NCBI GenBank assembly: GCA_964435215.1
Contig: CAYSXV010000004.1
Span: 1-37,355, forward strand
DNA length: 37,355 bases
Reading direction: 5' to 3'
DNA from: an uncultured Candidatus Peribacteria bacterium
GTDB lineage: Bacteria; Patescibacteriota; Gracilibacteria; Absconditabacterales; Absconditicoccaceae
The notes beneath the pieces were generated by a model. It searched no databases and was not told the origin of the DNA. It saw only the letters and a program-made list of their open reading frames with translations. Shown piece by piece: positions 6,518-18,283 of the stretch (position 1 is its first letter; each line of letters starts with the position of its first letter). A program made the position numbers and the translations under genes.

Positions 6518-7942
6518 CTATGCTTTTTTTTCTTTGAGTAGAGCAGCTGTGGCTGCGTTACAGAATTCTTCCGAATAGCGGTTACTTTCTATTTGTTTTA
6601 GTAAGGCTGATTGGGAAGCAAATGGACACATCTCAACAAGAATCCTTAGATGATGAACTTTGAGAAAGATTTCATCTATTGAGTTTTGTGAGAGTTTGGG
6701 AATAATAGATAACATTGTTTGATAGTCATCACCAATCTTATTGGCAATTGAGATCAAATTGTTTTGTTCTTCCAGATAGATAGATGCGGCTCTGCATAAC
6801 CCTTCCGGATATTTTTTTTGTTTGAGAATTTCCATGATCTCTACATCAGTTTTCTTTTCGAAATGTAGATATGGAAGTACTTTGGAGCAAAAACCATCAT
6901 CGTATTTTGCCTTTTCCATCAATTCCCAAAGTCCAGGTTCGTCTCTCTTTTTGAGATTGAGTTCTTTGATTGCGATTTTTAGTGCATCATTACTGAAAAA
7001 GTTTTTTCCCAGGACAAAGATAATATTGTCGTCATCCTTGAGAAATGGAATTGCCTTTGGGCAAATACCACTCATGTAGTGATGCTTTTCCAGTAGAGCT
7101 AAGATATCTTCATCCTTTTTACATATGGGGAAGAGAACTTCGCAGGTACTGAAATTATTTTGGCAGGTTTCAAATGCTAACCACATGTTAGCTTTTTGTT
7201 TTAAGGTTGGAACAACGATATTGGCAACGAATGGATGATAGTTTGACTTCTTCATAAGTGTCATCTTTGTTTTTTCATCCGTTATCATAGGAATTCCGTT
7301 GATACATGTTTTGAGATCAAACTTTGATCCTACGATTACTTCCATGATTTCTTTCTTTTTTTTGAGCCGGAGGACTCCGATTTCAGAAATATGATCACGA
7401 TAATTAAATCGTTGCATAACCTTGAGTGCGTTACTGGCAGATAAGTAGGGTATAAGTAAACGACAAATCGTCCAGTTGTAAACTGAATTTTGTACAAGTG
7501 CCCAGCGCCATGATTCTTTTTTTTCTGAGATTTTGAGCAGGGGAATGATAGCATCGCACATGTGAAATCCATACTTTGATTGTTCCATGATTTCTAACAA
7601 TTCCAGTTCTGTTTTGGTCTCCAGTCTGAAAAATGGAATCATATAATGGCAGACAATATCATCGTAACCGCTCTGTTTGATAAGAGCTATTAATTCTTTG
7701 TCTGTCTTGGCTGTGAGAGTGATCCGAGATAGCAACAAAGGTAATAAATCAGAGGAATGACTAGCTTTGGCAATAGGATATAATAAACCCTCAAAACTGT
7801 TTTGTTCCTTGAGTAATGAGATACCCAATCTACATACCTCCACTTCATACTTTGATTGCTCCATAATATTAAGAACTGTTTTTTCAGCGACCGTAATCTT
7901 CTGAGAAATACAAGCTCTAAAAAATCCTGATAAGTGTTTCAT
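6518..7942 (-). CDS. 474-aa alpha-helical repeat protein of unknown family. It is TGA-free and is the last gene of the RT cluster.
   Basis: Uninterrupted ORF with no TGA in 474 codons; all 14 Gly are GGN. About 12 degenerate repeats of roughly 38-42 aa share the pattern hhxhMxxSKYxxxxCxxhhPhLK (for example IMEQSKYEVEVCRLGISLLK, IMEQSKYGFHMCDAIIPLLK, LMEKAKYDDGFCSKVLPYLH). It looks GC-richer than its surroundings. AAGG lies 3 nt upstream of the ATG. Confidence 0.8.
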   Translation of the reverse strand: MKHLSGFFRACISQKITVAEKTVLNIMEQSKYEVEVCRLGISLLKEQNSFEGLLYPIAKASHSSDLLPLLLSRITLTAKTDKELIALIKQSGYDDIVCHYMIPFFRLETKTELELLEIMEQSKYGFHMCDAIIPLLKISEKKESWRWALVQNSVYNWTICRLLIPYLSASNALKVMQRFNYRDHISEIGVLRLKKKKEIMEVIVGSKFDLKTCINGIPMITDEKTKMTLMKKSNYHPFVANIVVPTLKQKANMWLAFETCQNNFSTCEVLFPICKKDEDILALLEKHHYMSGICPKAIPFLKDDDNIIFVLGKNFFSNDALKIAIKELNLKKRDEPGLWELMEKAKYDDGFCSKVLPYLHFEKKTDVEIMEILKQKKYPEGLCRAASIYLEEQNNLISIANKIGDDYQTMLSIIPKLSQNSIDEIFLKVHHLRILVEMCPFASQSALLKQIESNRYSEEFCNAATAALLKEKKA

Positions 7943-8052
7943 AGCCTTATTTGTTTTAGTTATTGATTGTGTTTTTATTATTGTTGGTTTTGTATTTTAT
8001 TAAGTATTACAATATAGATAAGAAAAATAATATCAAGAATAATGTTTTTTTA

Positions 8053-8331
8053 AAAAAATGCCCTGAATAAAAATCCAGGACATAAGTGGTATGGGCAAGT
8101 AAGGTTCCTGTCAGAAATGTAACCTTATTTATAAGGTTATAAATAAGACTGATTTTTATTGATATTCAACTGAATATCTTTTTCTGTCGGAACTTGTCGG
8201 AAATGTAAGGTTACATAAATATCACTTCCTCTTGTCCTAATCATAAATACCTCGTCTCGCAATATGCGGGGACTTTCAAAAGACAAAGCTTTAACCGGCA
8301 TTTAACGTGCAAAATACGCACGGCTTTTTTT
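8053..8331 (-). ncRNA. Structured RNA, paralog 0 of the RT-associated RNA family (diverged copy between the vWA gene and the 474-aa gene)
   Basis: It shares the 20-nt core GTCTCGCAATATGCGGGGAC (8254-8273, + strand notation) with the copies at 15237-15256 and 15559-15578. It also has the same closing stem, AAGTGG(TAT) at 8084-8092 against (ATAT)CACTT at 8219-8227. The two upstream hairpins are replaced by different sequences that still form hairpins (CGTGC..GCACG at 8307-8323; CTTT..AAAG). Confidence 0.55.
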
Positions 8332-10665
8332 TTATTTCTGTTTAAATATTTTTCATTGCATTGCGATAAAATAATCTCTTAACCTTTCTTTTCATTTAGT
8401 CATAATTTCTCAAGCATTATCCAAAAATAATTTCCATTCTGAAGTAAATATTTCAGAAAAATATTCTTTTTCAAAGTCTTGTAATCATAATCATACAAGG
8501 ATATCATTTCAATCAAATCTTTCAGCGACTTCTTTTAGTTCGTCTCAGTCTTTTCATTTATTTGGTTGGCCATCAGTAATAATAATAGGCATAAGTAATA
8601 TATCACGATTTTTTACAAAAAATTCATCTCATTTTTCGAGAATATCTTCTAATCATGATGCAATATCTGTCCTACTTTGTAAATTACTTAACATTCTACT
8701 TATTATTCATTTATTTGAATAATATTGGTCATCAAAAGATTTAATTGAAGTAACTTTTGCTCAAAATGTATTTATATAAAATGGTATTCATAATCTCTCA
8801 CAAAATAATGACATAAAGATTGCAAATGCTAATACTTCAAGAGCGACATCAGACATAGAACCACTAACGTCGATACTTAATGACATTCATAATTGTATAC
8901 GTACAGAATTTTCTTCATCTTCTCTACCATATACATCGTAATGTCACATTTTTATTTTTCTTCATGCTCAAATAATATTATATATTTTACCAGAAAAATA
9001 ATCACCATCTATAGTAATATCTTTTAATTTTGGAATATCATTCATAAGATCTTGTATAAACTCTTCTACTAATGGAGCTATTCTCTGTTCTATAACCTGA
9101 TATTTTTGATAATCATATTCTTGATCTTCAGAGAATCATTGTTCTTTCATCTCTTCTAAAAATCTTTTTCTTTTTTCCAAAAGCATTTTTTTTCTATTCT
9201 GTATCATTTCTTCAGCGGCTTTTCTATTTTTATTTGTCTTTATATTTCATGCTTTTCACTCTTGTTCTTCAAGTTTTTTCCAATCTTTATAATCAAAATC
9301 TTTTATAGTCGATGCAATATCATCAACAGCTTTTTTATCTTTATGAAATTGTTTGATCATATCTTCAATCCTTTTTTGTAGATTATCATCTGGGATTTCT
9401 GATCAAGGTTCTTTATCTTTTCAAGTAGGTTTTTTACTAGATGGAACAATATTTCATTCATCATCAGTATCCCAATCAAATTGAGGCATAGATTTTTTGA
9501 CTTCTTTGAGACCATCATTATCTATTTTTTTCTTTGCACGATCTATGTATGGTTGTTTCTCTTCAGGAGAATTATTTTTCCGCTCTTCATCAATTTTACG
9601 TTGAACTCATTTTTTTTCTATAGGTGTTAAATCTTTGTTGTTGGGCACGTCATCTAGAGAATCCAAAAGATCATCTAAAACTGAATTTCATCATGGTTGA
9701 GATGAATTGGATCATGGGTTGGGTTCAGATTTATTATTTTTTTTTCATTTTTTTGATTTTGATTGAATTAATTTTTTTAATTCTTCTAAATATTTCATAA
9801 GTTTTGCTTGATCATCAACATCTTTTTTAAGAATATCTTCAAGTATAGGCCAAAAGGTAATATTTTTTATTCATATTCTTTTATCGTTATCCATACTGAT
9901 ATCAGCAATCTGTTGTAGATATGGTTTAGCATTTTCTAAATGGATTTTCACTTCATCTGTAATATCTACTTTTACGTTATAATCATTTGGAAAATAATTA
10001 TTTAAATAATAATAAATAACAGCTATTTCAAATTGTTTGATTCTAGGTAGATGCTGAGCAGAAAGTACTCATGTAGAAAATGGTGCTTGTATGTGTCTAT
10101 AAAGCATCTTTATACCATTTTTTCTAACGGCATTTGTTTTTGCTCTCATAGAGTTGATGTAAAAATCTTCTACAACATTAAAAAACCTATGAATAGGAGA
10201 AGATGGAAGTTGTTTGTGATATGCTATCCTATTGCATCTTACAACGTCTTTGAAATCAGATGATAGTGCGTGTTGCATTTCATGTCATTGTACTTCACGC
10301 AATAATTGATCATCTAATTGTAACATCATAGAAAGACTATAGTAGAGATATTTGGGTTCAAAAAGCTCTTCAGGAATTTTTTTAATAGAATAATTTCAGT
10401 TCATATATCATGGAATATATTCATCGATCTCTTCTCCCAATCAACAAGCAAAAGTATCTCAGTCCTTTAATGGTCTAAGAGTAAGCTTTTTGGGGGATAT
10501 ACTGATGAGATATTCTAAATATTCCAACTTGTTTTCTACTAGAGTTTCCAATGCTTCATCAGAAATTTCATCTCAATCAAATAATTGTTTAGCTAAATAA
10601 GCATTGGACAAATTGGGCTCAGTATAATCCGCATATTGAAGTACATCAAATGTTTTGTTTTTCAT
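8332..10665 (-). CDS. HExxH metallopeptidase-like plus von Willebrand factor A (MIDAS) domain protein, 777 aa (resembles the DUF2201_N/DUF2201 partners of MoxR ATPases)
   Basis: The table-25 frame was checked codon by codon and has no TAA/TAG. HEMQH lies at 10270-10284. A charged Lys/Glu/Asp-rich linker follows. The C-terminal vWA domain has the MIDAS motif DVSGSMS (8851-8871) and IIITDGQPN. Its ATG (10663-10665) is 2 nt after the stop of the AAA gene. Confidence 0.8.
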
Positions 10666-10667
10666 TT

Positions 10668-13346
10668 TTATGTATTTGGAGTCTGATTAAAGAGTGTTTC
10701 TAATTTTAGATTTTTATTTGTTCAATAATTTTTTACTTCTTCAAGAACTGTTTCTCTTGATAGAGTTTTTAAATCATTTTTTATAGTTTCTCTATCAGAT
10801 AGAGAGGGGATAGAGTTTATATAAACTTCGATAAACGCCTTTTCAGGAGTATATCATAAACAAAGTAAATATAGCATTTTATTTAAATCTCTTTGTGAAA
10901 CAGAAGATGTTATCTTGCTTGATCTATCTATACCAGTCATTTTCTGGATATATTTACTGCGGAAATAATGAGCATACAAAAGTATTTCATTTATAGATTC
11001 GATTCATTTAATAAATTCTGGATTATAAGAAGATGTCTGTTTTTTATTTATAATATCATTCCATACCTGGATAAATTCTCTATCAGAAAGATATGAATCT
11101 TGCATCTTTGATATTTTTTCTTTTTGATCTTCACGTAATCAGTTACCATTGTGTTCTCTGATAATATAATATTTGATTTCATCAACATCACTTTGTGTGA
11201 ATCCTTCCTTAGATAATAATTTATAAAAATAAGGTACATTTTTGTATGTCATCAAAGCTTCATCATAGTTAACTATATTGTCTGTTATCAGGCTAGGATA
11301 GTCAATAAATTGAAAAAACGCTCTGCTAGAAATTTCAGCTGATAAAACATTGTTTCATTTATATACGTGTGTATTTGGATTCATTGTACCAAATATAAGC
11401 ACACTTTCTTTTGCTTTTTTTGAAGTATCACTATGAGGGAAATATAATTTTCTTCTCATATCCAATAGAGAATTTAATAATTTTGCTACTTCAGGACGTA
11501 GACTGTTAATCTCATCAAGAACCAATATAGCTCATTCAGTTTCAATAGCTTTTACTACTTCAGAATTTAATTTATATGTACCATTTTTATCTATAAGCCA
11601 TAGGTATGTCATATCATCTTTAGTGGTTTTTTCATTACAAGCAAAATTGAATACTGGTCTACCAGTATAATGAGCAAAAATATCTATTGCTACATTTTTA
11701 CCTACACCAGCTTCTCATTCTAAGATACCAAATCAATCTTGAGTAAGTAATTGATACTCAGATAGATGTACTATTTTATGTAATATCTCCATCACTGATG
11801 GAGGAATAACTATTTTAGAATTTAATTCTGGTGCTTTTTTGAGAGCAGAAAACAATCATGGCATAGCATTTATTTTTCTGATAACTCTAAAATAATGAGG
11901 AATATTTTTTTCTATTTCATCTCTTACTTCATGTAAACGCATCTGTAATTCTTGATATTCTGCAGATTTTTTATCTTCAAAGCGAATCAAAGAATCTGTT
12001 AATCTCACTTCTTCAGCAAATAATTCATTACATTCTTGGGTTTTATGAAATGTTGTATATTCTTTCATCATCTTTTTATATTCTTCTTCAGTCATCTTAT
12101 ATGGATTTTCTGGTCTGATTTTTTTCTCATCAGAAGCTTTGATAATTTTTCAGGATTTGATATCTTTTATATTTAGATGTACATTATCATCTACAATTTC
12201 AGGTTCTGCTTTCCATAAACTATTTGGTTTGTATAAGAATCTAGGAAAAACTGCTGATCCAAAATGGACTTCATCTCATCTAACTTTTATTTTAGGGAGA
12301 TTGATCTGTAGTGTAAGTAATTGTTCTTTTTTAAGATCTTCAAGTATTCAAATTAAATAAGTTTTTTTATCCTCAGATAAAAAATTTAATAAAGATTTCC
12401 ATTGTTTAATAATATCTTTTTGTCAGTAAGCTTCCAATTCTTCCTTGCTATGTAATGTTTCGATATCTTCACTGATTACTGTATTTACAAAAATTTCACA
12501 TAGAGTATATATCTCTTTGGTATATGAATCTTTGACATCATCACAAAGTTTTATAAAAAATTTAGCTTCTTCTTCATCTCAAGCAAGCTCTTCATTTTTT
12601 TTATATATAACATCATTCATCTCATCAATCAAAATAGCTATGGGGACAAAAATATCTTTGGTCTTTTGAGCATGACGTAGTTCTTGCACGATACTGTGTT
12701 TTTTTTCATATACCTGTTTGAAATGATCTTGAATATAAGCATTACTAATCAATTCATGAGCGTATGTATAAGATTGGTCATCTAAATATCATTGCTCCAT
12801 AAAATATTTCAATTCTTTTTCGATATTTTTGGAATATTGATAATCGAGAGAAACATTGGAACATATATTTGTTGTCCATTTTAAAAGATTTTGTTGGAAT
12901 AAAGAACTAATAGTATTGCGTAATTGAGTTTTAAGAAAATCTTCTGCTTCAGGATCTCATGTAGCAAAATCATAGGAAATAAGATCATTTATATCATCAC
13001 GTAAAGATTTTTTATTATTTAATAAACTATCATACATATTATTTTCGAGTGAATTTTGTAGTGATTTCCAAGTCTTAGCTTTGGCTTTTTTATGCTGATT
13101 TAGCATGATTTTGATTAATTGAGGAAAAATATCAGTAATCAATTTACTAATCATTTCTTTTTCTTCTTGTGGAATATTGTCACGTGAAAGTGAATCCAAA
13201 AGCTGTTTCTGGACTTCTACTATCATATGTACATCAGCAAAACGATATTCGCCGATATCAGTATTTGATTTAATCTGACTTAATATTTTTGATATACGTG
13301 CCATACTCATGTTGTTGTCTTTTAAGAAATTAAATATTACATTCAC
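10668..13346 (-). CDS. Large MoxR/AAA_5-type AAA+ ATPase, 892 aa, with an uncharacterised helical N-terminal region of about 470 aa
   Basis: The table-25 frame was checked and is continuous. Walker A is GEAGVGKN (11694-11717). Walker B plus the AAA_5-like segment reads AILVLDEINSLRPEVAKLLNSLLDMRRK (about 11455-11538), followed by ...VLIFGTMNP. The ATG at 13344-13346 overlaps the RT stop by 10 nt. Confidence 0.8.
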
Positions 13347-14926
13347 ATATCAGCACCATTTACAATAGAGTAAGAATAATAATTTTTCTTAGCATTTATT
13401 TTTGGGAAATGTTGTTGTTTAGCTGATCGATAATATTTTTCAAATTCATCTGCGACATGTCATTTTAATACTTCACTAGGTCTATTTTCTAATCATTGTC
13501 ATTTTACATCGGCTATGAAACTTCTTATACCATTCAGAGTGTCTGCAAGTAGTAGACCATCAACTTTACCTGTTTTAGGATCTTTGAATTTAATAGGTAA
13601 ATTACTTGGAGCAGTAGCTGCTGTCCTAGCAAATCAAATATATCTTGTCATTTTTTCTTGTGATATTCATAGTCTTCAATCATGACCTATCATGATACCA
13701 TTTACTTCTCTTGCTGTAGAAGCATTACGTCATCGAGATTTACTTTTACTATGCTTTATCTTCCATCAATTATGATTAACTATAGTCTGGATCTCTTGTT
13801 GTAAAAAATCCATTCAATCTGTTCATGGAGTCATATTTACAAATTTTAAGTATCTATCTATTTCTCATATTATGTTGTATCTAGTTTGTTCGAAAACTTC
13901 TATATTATTAAATTGATTATTTGCTGCGTAATCTAATATCTTTTGTTTAATTTTAAGTAACAATGCTCTTACTCTTCATCTGTTATATTCATCATCAAAT
14001 ATTACAGGACATTTTACAAGTTCATTGATATCATTTGATATAGATTGTATCTGAAAAACTGATTCTAAACCACTTTCAGCTTTGTTACTAAAAGTACTTT
14101 CAAGTTTATTATTTGTCTGTATAAGTTGTTGTTCTATATTTATATAATTTTTAAAATCTTTGAAACTGATTGCTATATCATCTATATATCTACTATACAA
14201 TGCATCACTTACAGGTGAAGCTTGGTTATATAAAAATTTTAATATATCCTGATCTGTCTTTGCAAATACAATATTTAATATGCGTGAACTTGTAGGTGCT
14301 CACTGTGGTAATTCATCATTTAATGTAATCAGAACTGTAAGATAAACAAAAAATATTTTCTTTTGTTCTTCATTGAGATAGGGGAATGATAGTTCTAGAT
14401 TTTTGGACATAGCTGTAGAAAGATTTTTATATACTCTATATGCATTTACACTTGGATAAGCATTTTTGATATCAGTAGTATATAAATATTTATTTGGTCT
14501 ATGTAATAATGCATTCTTTTTTGGGCTTGTTCATTTTTCACCACCGACAGTAGCTATAGAAACAGGTACATTTCTAAGAACGTCCAATAAATTCTCTTGA
14601 ATCTGTTTTAAAGGATCGGCAGGAGCGTTTATTGTTCTATATTCTTTTCAATCAGCTTTAAGGATTTTAAATTGAAAATATCATTGAGAAACTTCTTCCT
14701 CTCTGCTGCTGTTTTTTAAGGTAACGGTAGCGAGTGATTTTTCTTTAAGTTTCAATTTAATAACATCGATAAGTGTAGTTATGCTGCAACCACAAAAGTG
14801 AGATAAGGCCTTTAAAATTTCCTTGTCTAGATTGTCTACTGACTTTCTCAGGATATCTTTTTGTTCTTCCAAAAAGTGTTGGTTCTTATCCAAAATTTCT
14901 GCATCTTTATTTTCGGGTGTATGCAT
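13337..14926 (-). CDS. Retron-type reverse transcriptase, 529 aa
   Basis: Manual table-25 translation shows YRTINAPADPLKQIQENLL (motif 1), SPKKNALLH (retron NAxxH region, 14501-14515), YLYTTDIKNAYPSV (motif 2), LPQGAPTSSRILN (motif 4), and YSRYIDDIAISF (YxDD, 14177-14188). REVNGIMIG sits at the position of the retron VTG motif. Stop is TAA at 13337-13339. Confidence 0.9.
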
Positions 14927-14958
14927 GGTTATATTAAATATATATAAATTTATATAAT

Positions 14959-14986
14959 CTTATAATTATTTACTAGTAAATGTCAA
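14959..14986 (-). promoter_or_regulatory. Promoter of the RT operon (TTGACA-N16-TATAAG), copy 1 of a triplicated promoter module
   Basis: On the minus strand, TTGACA is at 14986-14981 and TATAAG at 14964-14959. The block TATAATTATTTACTAGTAAATGTCAATA recurs at 15311-15338 and 15633-15660. Confidence 0.65.
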
Positions 14987-15011
14987 TACGAAGGACTAGA
15001 AAATTTAGAAC

Positions 15012-15303
15012 AAAAAAAGCCCCTGAATGGGGCAAGTGGTACAATGCTTGAGATAGGTCAACGGCAAATAAAGAGCAAATATAGAGCAAATTAAGAGCAA
15101 ATGAGGAGCAAGGAAATGTAGATATAACAAGGGTTATAGTGCTATCTGGAGATTTCTCTAGAGATTTCTCTAGATAGTTATCCGGAGTTATCTGAGTAAT
15201 ATTTCATTTCCACTTTATCTCAATCATCAATGTCTTGTCTCGCAATATGCGGGGACTTCAACAGGAAAGATCCTGTAACGACTAAGAAGGCGTAAGCCTC
15301 GGG
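15012..15303 (-). ncRNA. RT-associated structured RNA, paralog 1 (msr/msd-like candidate), with its own promoter and terminator
   Basis: A promoter sits at 15309-15336. The 5' scaffold of about 110 nt has three hairpins: GAGGC-UUAC-GCCUU, CAGG-AUCUUU-CCUG, and GUC..CGCA-UAU-UGCG..GAC. The closing stem AAGUGG/CCACUU (15211-15216 / 15034-15039) encloses an insert of about 170 nt. The terminator is GCCCC-loop-GGGGC (15019-15033) plus U7. Confidence 0.7.
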
Positions 15304-15308
15304 GACAA

Positions 15309-15336
15309 TATATAATTATTTACTATTAAATGTCAA
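15309..15336 (-). promoter_or_regulatory. Promoter of RNA paralog 1 (TTGACA-N16-TATATA)
   Basis: On the minus strand, TTGACA is at 15336-15331 and TATATA at 15314-15309. It lies immediately downstream of the paralog-2 terminator. Confidence 0.65.
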
Positions 15337-15343
15337 TAGAAGT

Positions 15344-15624
15344 AAAAAAAGAAAAAGCCCCTAAATGGGGCGAGTGGAAGCATGATTTAATAATGTGGTT
15401 TGTGGTGTTCCTTAGTTAGGAATTGAGTTAGGATTTTAGTACGTTGGTATTGAACGTTGCGAAATGTTGTTTCGCATTGCGAATATCAGTTTTCCCTAGT
15501 TATCCGTGGTTATCCCGATAGAATTACCTTTCCACTTTATCATAATCATCAATGTCTTGTCTCGCAATATGCGGGGACTCCAACAGGAAAGATCCTGTAA
15601 CGACTATGAAGGCATAAGCCTCGA
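15344..15624 (-). ncRNA. RT-associated structured RNA, paralog 2, with its own promoter and terminator
   Basis: Its scaffold and promoter are about 135 nt near-identical to paralog 1 (15527-15660 against 15196-15338). The insert (15380-15530) is completely different. The closing stem is AGUGGAA/UUCCACU. The terminator is GCCCC-loop-GGGGC (15357-15371) plus a U-run. Confidence 0.7.
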
Positions 15625-15630
15625 GGGCAA

Positions 15631-15658
15631 TATATAATTATTTACTAGTAAATGTCAA
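15631..15658 (-). promoter_or_regulatory. Promoter of RNA paralog 2 (TTGACA-N16-TATATA)
   Basis: On the minus strand, TTGACA is at 15658-15653 and TATATA at 15636-15631, about 12 nt after the helicase stop codon. Confidence 0.65.
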
Positions 15659-15669
15659 TAGTTAGATTT

Positions 15670-17052
15670 TTATGTCATATTTTCTTGAATAAATTTTTTG
15701 ATTGCTGGATGGAAAAACAGATGTCTCCTTTCTATCTTAGTTAATAATTTAATACCAGCTAAAGTCCTTGATCTGCTAAGTGCTGTATATGCTTGTCATC
15801 AAGTAAAGATACCATAAAGATCTAGTGTACAAGCATCGAAAGTCATTCACTGTGATTTATGGATAGTGATAGAGTAGGCGAGTTTCAATGGTAGCTGTGA
15901 ATAGGTTCATAAGATATCTTCTTGGACTGCTCATTTATCAGTAATAGTAACTTCTTTGTTATATCGAGTTTCTGGTAAGATAGAAATAGTTTCGTTTCAT
16001 ATTTCGACATCAACGAAGTCTTCTCATAGACCTTGTACAAATCACATAGATCAATTGATCCATCTACCTGACATATCGTTGGTAATCATCATGACCTTTG
16101 CTCATTTTTTTAATCTGAGTATATCATCAGCCTTTTTCATACCGTCTGGAAATTTTCATTCAGTTTCTCAATGATAGAGATATTCTTTTCATGATAGTTC
16201 AAATAATTTTTTATTATTTACTGTATCTACTTTGTTTCTATGAGTAGATAATAAAATCACATCTGAATCTGCTTCTCATAGTTGTTTATTTAATACAGAG
16301 AGATGAAAATCTGATATATCTTCATTTCTTATAGCATCTAGAATATCTCAGAAAAATTGATCATGTTCTTGTCTATAATTTTTTTTCAATTCTATGATAT
16401 CATATGGCAGTTTATTTTTAAATGTAATAGAATCAAAAAACCATTCGCTCTCATAATGATTTGCAAATTTATCTTTCCAATCTTGATTACTTACAGGTGG
16501 TAGTTGAAAAACATCTCAAACGAAAATAACTGGCTTACCTCAGAAAGGTTTCCTGGCTAGGCTAGAATCTCAGGTTTCTTTTGCGATATTATATGACATC
16601 AAAAAATTAATACAGTCTATAGTACTAGAGTTCAACATGCTGATTTCATCTATGATAACAAATGGCACATTCATAAGTGTTTTAACTTTTTTCTTTTTGA
16701 GTTTATATTGTCTATTTTTTTTATCTTTTAAATAATGTTGAATATCTTTGAAATATACATTCTCGATTCATAAAGAAAAAAAAGAATGAACAGTCTGTCA
16801 TCATATATTGAGTGCTGAGATACCTGTAGATCAGAGTGCTAGAGGTGGCTTGGATATACCTGTACAAAATTCTATCACATCTTTGATAAGAGTAGATTTT
16901 CCTGTACCTGCTTTACCAGTCAAGAATATACAATTATCTGTAGTATTTAGTTGATTTAGAAATGACAATGCATCAGGATTATCTTTTCGTTTATTTAGAA
17001 TTTTTTTGTATCTAGTTTTTACATCAGAGGATAAGTTATCAATATTTAGCAT
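15670..17052 (-). CDS. PIF1/RecD-like superfamily-1 DNA helicase, 460 aa
   Basis: The table-25 frame was checked and has no stops. Motifs: Walker A LTGKAGTGKST, GSTGISALNIGGQTVHSFF, Walker B VIIDEISM, VGDVFQLPPV, and C-terminal AYSITIHKSQGMTFD. Confidence 0.85.
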
Positions 17053-17080
17053 AAGTAGAGTAGTCGTTGTAGAGTAAAAA

Positions 17081-17479
17081 TTATAATCCTATTTTATTTG
17101 CGATTAGGTAAGTTATTATTGAAACAGATGCTGCAAGAGTTGCTCACCATAATAAATCAATAATAGTAACCAATAATGGCCATCCTTTTATTGTAGCCAA
17201 ATTAGTCAGATCGTATGTTGCATATGTTATCAAACCAAATAATGCACCTAATAATAATGCTTGTATCCATGAACCTTTTTCAAGTGCTGGTCTAATGACA
17301 AATATAACTAGTCCAACGATAAATAATAGATAGAAAATAATTGCTGCTGATCGATTGATATTATTTTTCATTAAAAATCATAGTTGTTTAGCATAGAAAT
17401 TTTTTGCTACTAATCCAAGCCATACCATATCAATAGCAAAAAAAACTGATAGAGCTATTGCATAAAGTTTTATAAACAT
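17081..17479 (-). CDS. DUF2177-like small integral membrane protein, 132 aa
   Basis: MFIKLYAIALSVFFAIDMVWLGLVAKNFYAKQLGFLM...GLITYATYDLTNLATIKGWPLLVTIIDLLWGATL.... It has four hydrophobic segments, and TGA=Gly read-through joins the fragments in the ORF track. Confidence 0.6.
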
Positions 17480-17521
17480 TTTTTTTATCTGAAAAGAATA
17501 AAATTTATTTATAATTTTTTT

Positions 17522-18283
17522 TTATTTTACCTCAATCAATCGTTCATTTGTTCTCATGAATGGAATAGTCCGAGGATCATTGTATTGATTTAAAATAGCT
17601 ACAGTATCTGTTGTAATATTTTGTTCTTTTAGTGCTTTTTGGAATATACTAAGTTGTTTATTTGCTCTGGACTCTTGCGCATATCGTGAAAATTTCCATA
17701 CATAATATTTTTTTGCTGGAAGTTCAACAAAAGTGATATTAGGATTGTTTGGTTTAGGTAAAGTTTCTATAGTATATTTGCTTGGCATAGTAAACGTAAT
17801 AAGATAACTATCGCCTTCTTTTTGTGTCCCCACAGGAGCAGTCATAGCAATAGTGCTATTTGTCTTTGTTACTCATACAGGAGCCGTCATGGCAATAGTG
17901 CTATTTGTCTTTGTTACTCATACAGGAGCCGTCATGGCAATAGTACTATTTGTTTTTGTTACTCATACAGGAGCAGTCATGGCAATTGTACTATTTGTTT
18001 TTGTAGTACCTACTGGAGCCGTCATAGCAACTGATGTCTTATTTGTATTTCATCAGAATATATATCACGCTAATTGACGGAATCAATCATTAAGAGCTTT
18101 ATTTTGTGAGCCTGTTACTGATACAACTGCTTGTATCATAGGTCCAATTTCACGCACTTCTATATTCCCAGTTATCATTGTGCTAGAAATAATTTTTGGT
18201 TTTTCGATGCTTCTTGTGCTAAAATATGACCAAGATACTCGTATCACTAATACGATAAATATAATTATAAGAACTATTTTCAT
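17522..18283 (-). CDS. SOUL haem-binding-family protein with an N-terminal signal/anchor and an internal 15-aa tandem repeat
   Basis: The sequence reads ...EKPKIISSTMITGNIEVREIGPMIQAVV...GFRQLAGYIFGGNTNK..., then five copies of (I)AMTAPVG.TKTNST, then ...YLITFTMPSKY...YNDPRTIPFMRTNERLIEV. A single table-25 frame links track ORFs 18083-18283 and 17522-17845. Confidence 0.8.
17832..18045. repeat. 45-bp tandem repeat, about 4.7 copies, in frame within the SOUL gene
   Basis: Units start at 17832, 17877, 17922, 17967 and 18012 (ACAGGAGC[AC]GTCATGGCAATAGTGCTATTTGTCTTTGTTACTCAT). There are only a few substitutions between units. Confidence 0.9.

Follow-up and report, generated by a model that had tools for sequence, protein, structure and literature searches.

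What would a bacterium do with a reverse transcriptase (RT) gene that is accompanied by several separately encoded structured RNAs? The question is raised by a locus of an uncultured Candidatus Peribacteria bacterium, placed by GTDB in the Absconditabacterales (assembly GCA_964435215.1, contig CAYSXV010000004.1). The whole stretch of 37,355 nt that was analysed is referred to here as the window, and coordinates are those of the window, on the minus strand unless stated otherwise. An earlier note had pointed out two tandem promoter-to-terminator RNA cassettes upstream of the RT gene. We find that these cassettes belong to a family of structured non-coding RNAs (ncRNAs) that is linked to the RT and occurs in arrays, and this part of the answer is firm. 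On balance, the locus is probably a divergent retron-family system in which one RT works with several msr-msd-like RNAs that have a constant handle and different templates.

The two tandem cassettes lie at about 15658-15344 (cassette 1) and about 15336-15012 (cassette 2). Cassette 3 has a variant scaffold and lies at about 8333-8050, just past the last gene of the operon that contains the RT gene. Each cassette is predicted to consist of a promoter, a constant 5' scaffold of about 100 nt, an insert of 110-170 nt held in a covarying helix and an intrinsic terminator; no promoter of its own was found for cassette 3. The features of the cassettes and of the RT gene are as follows.

15629 to 15658, minus strand: promoter of cassette 1, TTGACA-N18-TATATT, agreeing with the consensus at 11 of 12 positions, with the perfect palindrome ATTTACTAGTAAAT between the hexamers
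15526 to 15630, minus strand: scaffold of cassette 1, recognized by a covariance-model match of 121.9 bits, by its fold and by covariation
15622 to 15609, minus strand: hairpin 1 (HP1) of cassette 1
15605 to 15602 with 15556 to 15553, minus strand: helix P2 of cassette 1, AGUC with GACA
15598 to 15583, minus strand: hairpin 2 (HP2) of cassette 1
15578 to 15559, minus strand: hairpin 3 (HP3) of cassette 1, with AAGA directly after it
15382 to 15550, minus strand: closing helix X/X' of cassette 1 around its insert, 15550-15537 with 15393-15382
Insert of cassette 1, minus strand: motifs GGAUAAC, UUCGCAA and UCCUAACU, each twice
15344 to 15379, minus strand: 3' end of cassette 1, with UUCCACU (15379-15373), an intrinsic terminator hairpin (15371-15357) and a U-run
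15307 to 15336, minus strand: promoter of cassette 2, TTGACA-N18-TATATT
15204 to 15308, minus strand: scaffold of cassette 2, with HP3 at 15256-15237, recognized by a covariance-model match of 119.2 bits and by its fold
15012 to 15228, minus strand: remainder of cassette 2, with the closing helix UUGAGAUA/UAUCUCAA within 15228-15215 and at 15055-15048
Insert of cassette 2, minus strand: motifs GAUAACU and UCUAGAGAAAUC, each twice, and UUUGCUCU in three exact copies and a degenerate fourth with an 11-nt period
15033 to 15019, minus strand: terminator of cassette 2, GCCCC-N5-GGGGC and then a U-run
14957 to 14986, minus strand: third copy of the promoter, before the RT gene, TTGACA-N18-TAAGAT with the same palindrome
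13337 to 14926, minus strand: RT gene, 529 amino acids with TGA read as glycine, Pfam RVT_1
8050 to 8333, minus strand: cassette 3, with a variant scaffold (8328-8222) that has the same HP3 (49.4 bits, E = 2.7e-8)
Insert of cassette 3, minus strand: motifs AUGUAACCUUACAU, UUCCGACA twice and GAUAUUCAGUUGAAUAUC
8081 to 8060, minus strand: terminator hairpin of cassette 3, then a U-run

A scan of the window for promoters and terminators bore out the near-consensus promoters and the GCCCC..GGGGC terminators of the earlier note. The promoter block of 28 nt is present three times, and its copies are the top three of 31 promoter-like sites in 13000-17500. The boundaries of the cassettes coincide with these three best sites and with both minus-strand terminators, which share the form GCCCC-N5-GGGGC followed by a T-run. 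The near-identity of the two copies, also claimed before, is seen in a repeat of 165 nt (15175-15339 against 15497-15661, 89% identity), and by segment it amounts to 97% for the promoter, 93% for the scaffold and 82% for the 3' end. A palindrome, ATTTAnTAGTAAAT, sits between the -35 and -10 elements of all three promoters (14968-14981, 15318-15331 and 15640-15653). The palindrome is perfect in two of them (ATTTACTAGTAAAT), and the copy in cassette 2 deviates at the central base. Within the window the palindrome is restricted to these promoters, and it is also found in the related contig L001. It looks like a candidate operator that co-regulates the RT gene and the cassettes.

The scaffold is a real conserved structured RNA. 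It begins with HP1, which is followed by a 4-bp helix P2 that closes a three-way junction of HP2 and the nearly invariant HP3 (GUC...GAC), with AAGA after HP3. The three hairpins, the core GUCCCCGCAUAUUGCGAGAC (15578-15559 and 15256-15237) and the substitution in a hairpin loop between the two cassettes (GCGUAAGC/GCAUAAGC) are all present in fold and sequence as the earlier note had described them. Both RNAs fold better than shuffled sequences (z = -4.7 for cassette 1 and -2.0 for cassette 2). A first covariance model was built from the eight scaffolds upstream of the RT gene in the window and in two related contigs, L001 (GCA_964663645.1) and L002 (ERZ27247363), which together form the near clade, or window clade. 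It recovered its own eight members and three cassettes downstream of the operon (8328-8222 in the window; 12604-12705 and 12947-13048 in L001), and it also reached the distant scaffolds of loci L006 and L007. A second covariance model found the scaffolds of L003, L004, L094 and L093, each of them exactly upstream of the RT gene. In the resulting alignment of 17 cassettes, 91.8% of the cells are paired, as against 39-46% when the partners are slid. Compensatory changes with both sides altered are seen at 12 of the 22 scaffold pairs, and the observed covariation score was reached by no shuffle. This alignment is fitted to the model and so favours the structure; the same helices were obtained independently by MAFFT and RNAalifold on the eight cassettes. 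A 10-bp stem in the minimum free energy (MFE) folds of single sequences, CAUAGUCGUU/GAUGAUUAUG, is superseded by the covarying 4-bp P2 and the X/X' helix. The covariation that the earlier note had proposed to look for is thus strong and extends to homologous loci. The scaffold corresponds to no known RNA family in Rfam, where nothing better than E ~8 was obtained for 14000-16500 on either strand, the retron msr model included.

The insert is closed by a second covarying element. The earlier note had named two closing stems, and both exist: AGUGGAA/UUCCACU is present in cassette 1 (15536-15530 with 15379-15373) and AAGUGG/CCACUU in cassette 2 (15215-15210 with 15039-15034). These stems show no covariation of their own; AGUGG(AA)/(UU)CCACU is conserved in sequence, and the changes in L002 only weaken the pairing. 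The covarying helix is their neighbour X/X', which lies just 5' of AGUGG and pairs GAUGAUnnnGAUA with UAUCnnnAUCAU, the partner being 6-8 nt upstream of CCACU. Its compensatory variants include UUGAGAUA/UAUCUCAA, GAUUGAGA/UCUCAAUC, GAUAAG...UAAUG/CAUUA...CUUAUC and GAUGAGGA/UCCUUCAUC. Across eight cassettes the mean duplex energy is -9.25 kcal/mol for cognate strands and -6.8 kcal/mol for non-cognate strands (permutation p = 0.00045). X/X' crosses the AGUGG/CCACU pairing, so that the two are either alternatives or parts of an H-type pseudoknot. That an RNA helix around the insert covaries indicates that the transcript is under selection. In the clade of L004, L093 and L094, the 5' strand after the scaffold, GCGAAAGGAGGGAAU, can pair with a duplicated AGUUUUCCC at the 3' end of the insert, by which one motif pair belongs to the closing helix there.

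The long-range helices of the window cassettes enclose the insert only and leave the scaffold outside. This matches the earlier description of a layout unlike canonical msr-msd for the window clade, where the conserved hairpins do lie 5' of the closing helix, but it does not hold for the family, since four distant relatives keep an outer stem like the a1/a2 stem of retrons. In the MFE folds of L006, L007, L008 and L013 the 5' end pairs with a conserved GAUGCAARG just before the terminator, and the stem encloses both scaffold and insert. In L003, complementary GCAUC and GAUGC segments are seen by eye, and their pairing is not drawn in the fold. The outer stem of the distant relatives is the canonical retron a1/a2 topology. 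Because it is found in distant relatives and not in the near clade, the unusual layout appears to be a derived state of the window clade. The heptamer GUGGAAA is invariant in the eight upstream cassettes of the near clade and is followed by G residues, and its position is not conserved across the family.

The gene downstream of the tandem cassettes encodes an RT, as the earlier note had it, with RVT_1 in Pfam and retron RT models in PADLOC. It has the motifs NALLH, YIDD and EVNG, and its fingers and palm are retron-like. The best PADLOC model is RT_VI (5.5e-35), and the matches listed (the best 25 of 40) are all to retron RT models. The retron-model matches span only residues ~77-281. The protein has three extra regions, which are an N-terminal helical part of ~75 amino acids, an insertion of ~110 amino acids after YIDD and a C-terminal part of ~100 amino acids. 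Residues ~35-70 give the impression of a helix-turn-helix (HTH) fold. A profile of the family had 12 matches in the PDB, all of them retron RTs. In 12 homologs NAxxH (with N138 and H142 invariant) and E(V/I)(N/T)G are conserved. Judged by closest sequence similarity, the RT belongs with the retron RT lineage. Its own family is small but real. An exhaustive profile search gave 66 cluster representatives at E <= 1e-30, of which ~30 are full-length; no full-length relative was found in INPHARED or IMG/VR, and scans of GTDB and JGI metagenomes added one new full-length locus, L013. One homolog is on a metagenome-assembled genome named Candidatus Absconditabacterales.

The RNA and the RT are inherited together. 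Every locus of an RT homolog with readable upstream DNA (L001-L004, L006-L009, L013, L093, L094 and L192) has one to five cassettes. Immediately upstream of the RT gene and on the same strand, three cassettes are found in each of L001 and L002, two in L009 and at least one in each of L003, L004, L006, L007, L008, L013, L093, L094 and L192. In the window clade cassettes flank the operon at both ends, with two upstream and one downstream in the window and three and two in L001, whereas three are present in L002. The flanking genes differ from locus to locus, and the RT is the sole protein common to all loci in an all-against-all BLAST of their proteins. The cassettes are therefore tied to the RT.

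The inserts consist of series of duplicated 7-10-nt motifs and of palindromes. In 20 cassettes, 244 direct 7-mer repeats within 30 nt were counted, as against 8.5 +/- 3.7 in shuffles and ~27 in random segments of the window, and for 236 of these repeats the offset is 10-12 or 19-22 nt. Palindromes with arms of 6 nt and centres of 0-3 nt number 54, where 4.8 are expected. Some motifs, such as UUUGCUCU and GGAUAACU, reach three to five copies. The two inserts had been called unrelated, which is true of their cores (31% identical) but not of their first 35 nt (63%), where they share a GATAAC-nn-GGATAAC pair, nor of their construction from duplicated short motifs. Certain motif pairs (AGTTTTCC, AGTTATCC, AGTTAGCA/TA and ATGTAAnnTTACAT) recur in cassettes whose RTs are only 37-45% identical. 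Outside the cassettes, motif pairs are essentially missing from the ~130 kb of sequence that was examined. The motifs stand in either orientation relative to the scaffold, even inside one RNA, and whole blocks of motifs are inverted between loci (58 nt between L004 and L007, for example). A DnaA-box identity for the TT(A/T)TCC motifs was considered and dropped, because the CACA half of the box is missing. An iteron-like region of an IMG/VR phage contig, L161 (1560-1830), has paired direct repeats of 9-11 nt, with AAGTTATCCC twice and AAAGCAAGTAC six times, and no RT nearby; it is an example of a natural array of double-stranded DNA sites in a similar style.

Insert types are also orthologous between genomes. 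The insert of cassette 1 of the window corresponds to that of cassette 1 in both L001 and L002, that of cassette 2 to cassette 3 of L001 and that of cassette 3 to cassette 4 of L001, and the insert type of cassette 2 of L001 is missing from the window. The idea of a constant module with exchangeable payloads is hence right in that the scaffold is conserved and tied to one RT family, but "exchangeable" is too strong a word. The cassettes appear to be stable paralogues that come and go as whole units, while short motif blocks are shuffled and inverted between lineages.

How does this compare with known systems? Retrons usually have one RT and one msr-msd RNA, and the msd is mostly treated as a structural hairpin. 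Mestre and colleagues reportedly distinguished retron types I-XIII in 2020. The present locus is like a retron in the closest similarity of its RT fingers and palm, in the NAxxH and VTG-like motifs, in having a structured ncRNA immediately upstream on the same strand, and in the order of constant hairpins and then a variable region closed by a stem, with the a1/a2-like stem kept in four distant members of the family. It differs in having several ncRNAs per RT, most of them with their own promoter and terminator and further ones after the operon. In the window clade the hairpins precede the closing helix and a terminal a1/a2 stem is missing, and the inserts are strings of motifs and not one long msd hairpin. 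Its RT of ~500 amino acids has the three extra regions, it scores under curated cut-offs, and the family has no effector in common.

Type VI retrons consist of an ncRNA, a small protein, an HTH protein and an RT, and their single hybrid RNA also encodes the toxic small protein (bioRxiv 10.1101/2025.10.22.683967). RT_VI is the best PADLOC model here, the use of the ncRNA is non-canonical in both, and in type VI conserved short direct repeats of the RNA have been proposed to matter. However, the present locus has neither of the two genes, for the small protein and for the HTH protein, and the cassettes end at a terminator with no open reading frame (ORF). UG27 RTs have been shown to use variable ncRNA arrays as templates for short cDNAs (bioRxiv 10.64898/2026.09.22.753630, preprint September 2026). 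UG27 belongs to the class 2 UG RTs, requires two accessory proteins (sORF and bORF) and occurs in prophages of Bacteroidota and Bacillota, and its units are ~135-167 nt long with an AUC-N7-UANAG start motif and UUYA motifs (bioRxiv 10.64898/2026.09.22.753630). In both systems one RT goes with an array whose units keep their structure and vary in sequence, and in both the loci differ by gain and loss of units. The present family has a retron-like RT, longer units (~280-330 nt) that are mostly promoter-to-terminator genes, a chromosomal location in Absconditabacteria-like genomes and none of the UG27 motifs; these features, and not a direct comparison of RT sequences, set UG27 apart. DRT10 is a class 2 UG RT (UG17) that is protein-primed and has a single template (PMC12632851). 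It shares with the present locus an ncRNA with short repeated template elements, whereas here there are many motif pairs per RNA and a retron-like RT. In a full-text literature search, neither retrons nor RT-linked RNAs turned up for Absconditabacteria or Gracilibacteria, and no natural multi-ncRNA retrons were found. UG27 is the only natural RT-linked ncRNA array that has been reported, and it is in a different RT class. A multi-RNA array around one retron-like RT is an arrangement that is undescribed for retrons.

We favour the following course of events. The RT gene and cassettes 1 and 2 would share a sigma-70-type promoter and a palindromic operator and would be expressed together. The scaffold would be bound by the RT as the equivalent of msr, and the insert would be copied as a template as the equivalent of msd, so that a single RT would yield several different multicopy DNAs. 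These roles of handle and template are probable by analogy with retrons and UG27 arrays. The next step is speculative and is the weakest of the proposal. The products may display protein-binding sites as duplex or hairpin nucleic acid, as suggested by the helical period, the spacer-less palindromes and the presence of motifs in either orientation. They could then be bait by which proteins of an invader or of the host are sensed, or decoys by which such proteins are titrated. That a retron-like RT turns a genomic catalogue of candidate protein-binding sites (operator-, iteron- or arm-site-like motif pairs) into multicopy DNA, as an innate library of bait or decoys against the DNA-binding proteins of phages or plasmids or as an amplifiable sponge for host regulators, is in our estimate doubtful.

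Several observations weigh against the proposal. On the side of the RT, the match to the NCBIfam model retron_St85_RT (1.8e-36) scores 125.9 bits against a cut-off of 235, the NCBIfam TIR and Ec67 retron models are likewise far under their cut-offs, and a Pfam scan of the N-terminal, insertion and C-terminal regions gave no recognizable domain. The AlphaFold model of the RT is poor (predicted local distance difference test 61, predicted template modelling score 0.38), and with it Foldseek found only weak matches to retron RTs (TM below 0.3). On the side of the RNA, inspection of the eight near-clade cassettes revealed no conserved pairing of the 5' and 3' ends as in a1/a2, and no clearly conserved branching G is present in the window clade. 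No effector conserved across the family was found in the BLAST comparison of the loci. The transcripts, the cDNA and the priming site are predictions made from DNA sequence alone. As for the display of protein sites, we know of no binder for any insert motif. Exact motif pairs do occur in IMG/VR (59 matches for AGTTTTCCnnAGTTTTCC and 34 for AGTTATCCnnAGTTATCC), which by a rough estimate is about what chance would give; none of these matches is beside an RT, and a few are in iteron or DnaA-box-like regions. For most direct-repeat motifs the same RNA offers no complementary partner, so that a single-stranded product would not show a duplex and a second strand or an RNA:DNA hybrid must be assumed.

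Could the repeats themselves be the template? DRT10 synthesizes DNA with tandem repeats on an ncRNA whose template features resemble those of telomerase (PMC12632851). In the same way, two copies of an 8-nt motif separated by a 2-nt spacer could serve as a repeat-addition template on which the nascent cDNA realigns to the second copy, and stuttering of the RT would give several kinds of tandem-repeat DNA. Direct repeats with fixed offsets of 10-12 nt dominate every insert, and the motifs in three to five copies would fit such a process. Yet each RNA has four to eight different motif pairs and not one template at a fixed distance from the scaffold, and the spacers of 2-3 nt vary between the two copies. 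The many spacer-less palindromes and the 21-nt period suggest protein sites and not alignment regions, and the RT groups with retrons and not with class 2 UG RTs or DRT10. We consider telomerase-like synthesis unlikely. Membership of another described RT system is highly improbable. Diversity-generating retroelements (DGRs), DRT2 with its rolling-circle gene template and UG27 arrays all pair an RT with a nearby non-coding template, and UG27 has arrays of diverse units. A DGR was rejected since a sensitive blastn of the three inserts against the 37-kb window gave self matches only and the RT is not DGR-like. DRT2 was rejected as well; TAA or TAG interrupts all six frames of most inserts, there is no shared open frame, and the lengths are not consistently multiples of three. 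For UG27, AUC-N7-UANAG is present in 0 of 17 cassettes, the units measure 250-345 nt, there is no conserved accessory protein, the phage and viral collections searched lack the family, and retron RTs are the nearest relatives.

Two further explanations would dispense with copying of the inserts. The cassettes may act as RNA, as sponges or regulatory small RNAs in the manner of CsrB or 6S, with an RT that binds the scaffold for another purpose or is simply co-regulated. They are complete transcription units with strong predicted promoters and terminators, repeated short motifs are typical of sponge RNAs, and formation of cDNA from the inserts is itself part of our proposal and not an observation. 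This explanation is nevertheless improbable, slightly more so than repeat addition, as the scaffold strictly accompanies a single RT family even where the gene neighbourhoods differ greatly. The presence of motif blocks in both orientations would change the RNA that is presented, which argues against recognition at the RNA level, and perfect palindromes with centres of 0-2 nt are typical of double-stranded DNA sites and not of RNA hairpins. The same palindromes, the helical periodicity of 10-12 and 21 nt and the apparent orientation independence of the motifs would suit a function of the chromosomal DNA itself, in which operator-, iteron- or centromere-like arrays are titration sites or roadblocks that gate the full-length RNA and transcription is secondary. 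The phage iteron region of L161 looks alike, and a palindromic operator lies inside each promoter. A purely chromosomal role is still less probable; it would leave unexplained why the arrays lie exactly between a covarying scaffold and a terminator and always with an RT, and the covarying RNA helix around the insert implies selection at the level of the transcript. For these reasons the divergent retron-family system with several templates remains our preferred reading.

The neighbouring genes may supply its partners in the window clade.

10668 to 13310, minus strand: AAA_5 (MoxR/dynein-type) ATPase of 880 amino acids, conserved as a neighbour of the RT in the window clade only (window, L001, L002)
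8332 to 10665, minus strand: vWA-like protein of 777 amino acids, with a C-terminal DxSxS motif (SIDVSGSM) seen by eye
15670 to 17052, minus strand: PIF1-family helicase (1.6e-28), directly upstream of the cassettes on the same strand

The cassettes bracket the operon of the RT, AAA_5 and vWA-like genes, and these two proteins are therefore likely clade-specific partners or effectors. The protein of 777 amino acids had no profile match, and its vWA-like nature is deduced from the motif. An ortholog is conserved in L001, and the contig of L002 ends before that gene. When both proteins were compared with PADLOC defence models, only a marginal match to GajB was obtained. A PIF1 helicase that is 91.5% identical is also found near the cassettes in L001, with two opposite-strand genes between helicase and cassettes, and is absent from the other loci.

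Other features recur around the more distant relatives. A TrmB-family protein is encoded upstream in L004, L006 and L007. In L003, L004, L006, L007, L093 and L094 a conserved inverted repeat, TGTTAC-N8-11-TAACAAC(A), is located ~10-40 nt upstream of the -35 element of a cassette; it may be a candidate regulator site, given the TrmB gene neighbours in L004, L006 and L007. L003 (4530-5135) and L006 (4525-4990) contain a second type of long non-coding unit of ~450-600 nt with its own promoter and terminator. These units share ATGAGTATTCGATCC(T/A)GTAGATAAAC, they are upstream of the RT-proximal cassette, and the scaffold model misses both. Small ORFs of 41 and 65 amino acids lie between the units in L003 and L006.

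The window has a G+C content of 28% and is recoded. In the standard code only two ORFs of at least 150 amino acids (492 and 159) are present, and with TGA as a sense codon the coding density is near 100%. TGA stands where glycine is invariant, as in the Walker A motifs of FtsH-like and DEAD-box genes, which indicates code 25 (TGA = Gly). With the RT homolog on an Absconditabacterales genome, the host is probably an Absconditabacteria-like bacterium of the candidate phyla radiation. The ORF of 492 amino acids (6518-7996), a repetitive helical protein beside cassette 3, has no TGA codon despite the frequent TGA glycines elsewhere, which could reflect foreign origin or codon bias. The ORF at 17522-18283 contains four to five tandem copies of a 15-amino-acid unit, TNSTIAMTAPVGVTK. 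A P-loop ATPase at 1-966, cut by the edge of the window, has the Walker A motif GPNGAGKSN after recoding and may be a defence-type candidate.

The locus points to a possible lineage whose single retron-type RT works with a small library of RNAs, each expressed separately and with a modular, information-like payload. If the inserts are reverse-transcribed, RT-linked ncRNA arrays arose independently of UG27 and within the retron lineage, and these loci would be natural multiplexed retron templates, which so far exist only as engineered "retron arrays". The purpose of the sequence of multicopy single-stranded DNA could then be put to the test, since the motifs are short and discrete and are shared between genomes by conservation. 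If the products do prove to be bait or decoys, defence or regulation would work through reverse-transcribed binding sites and not through guides or toxins. For the Absconditabacteria, which are reduced and recoded episymbionts with a poorly known immune repertoire, the family adds a candidate defence or regulatory system.

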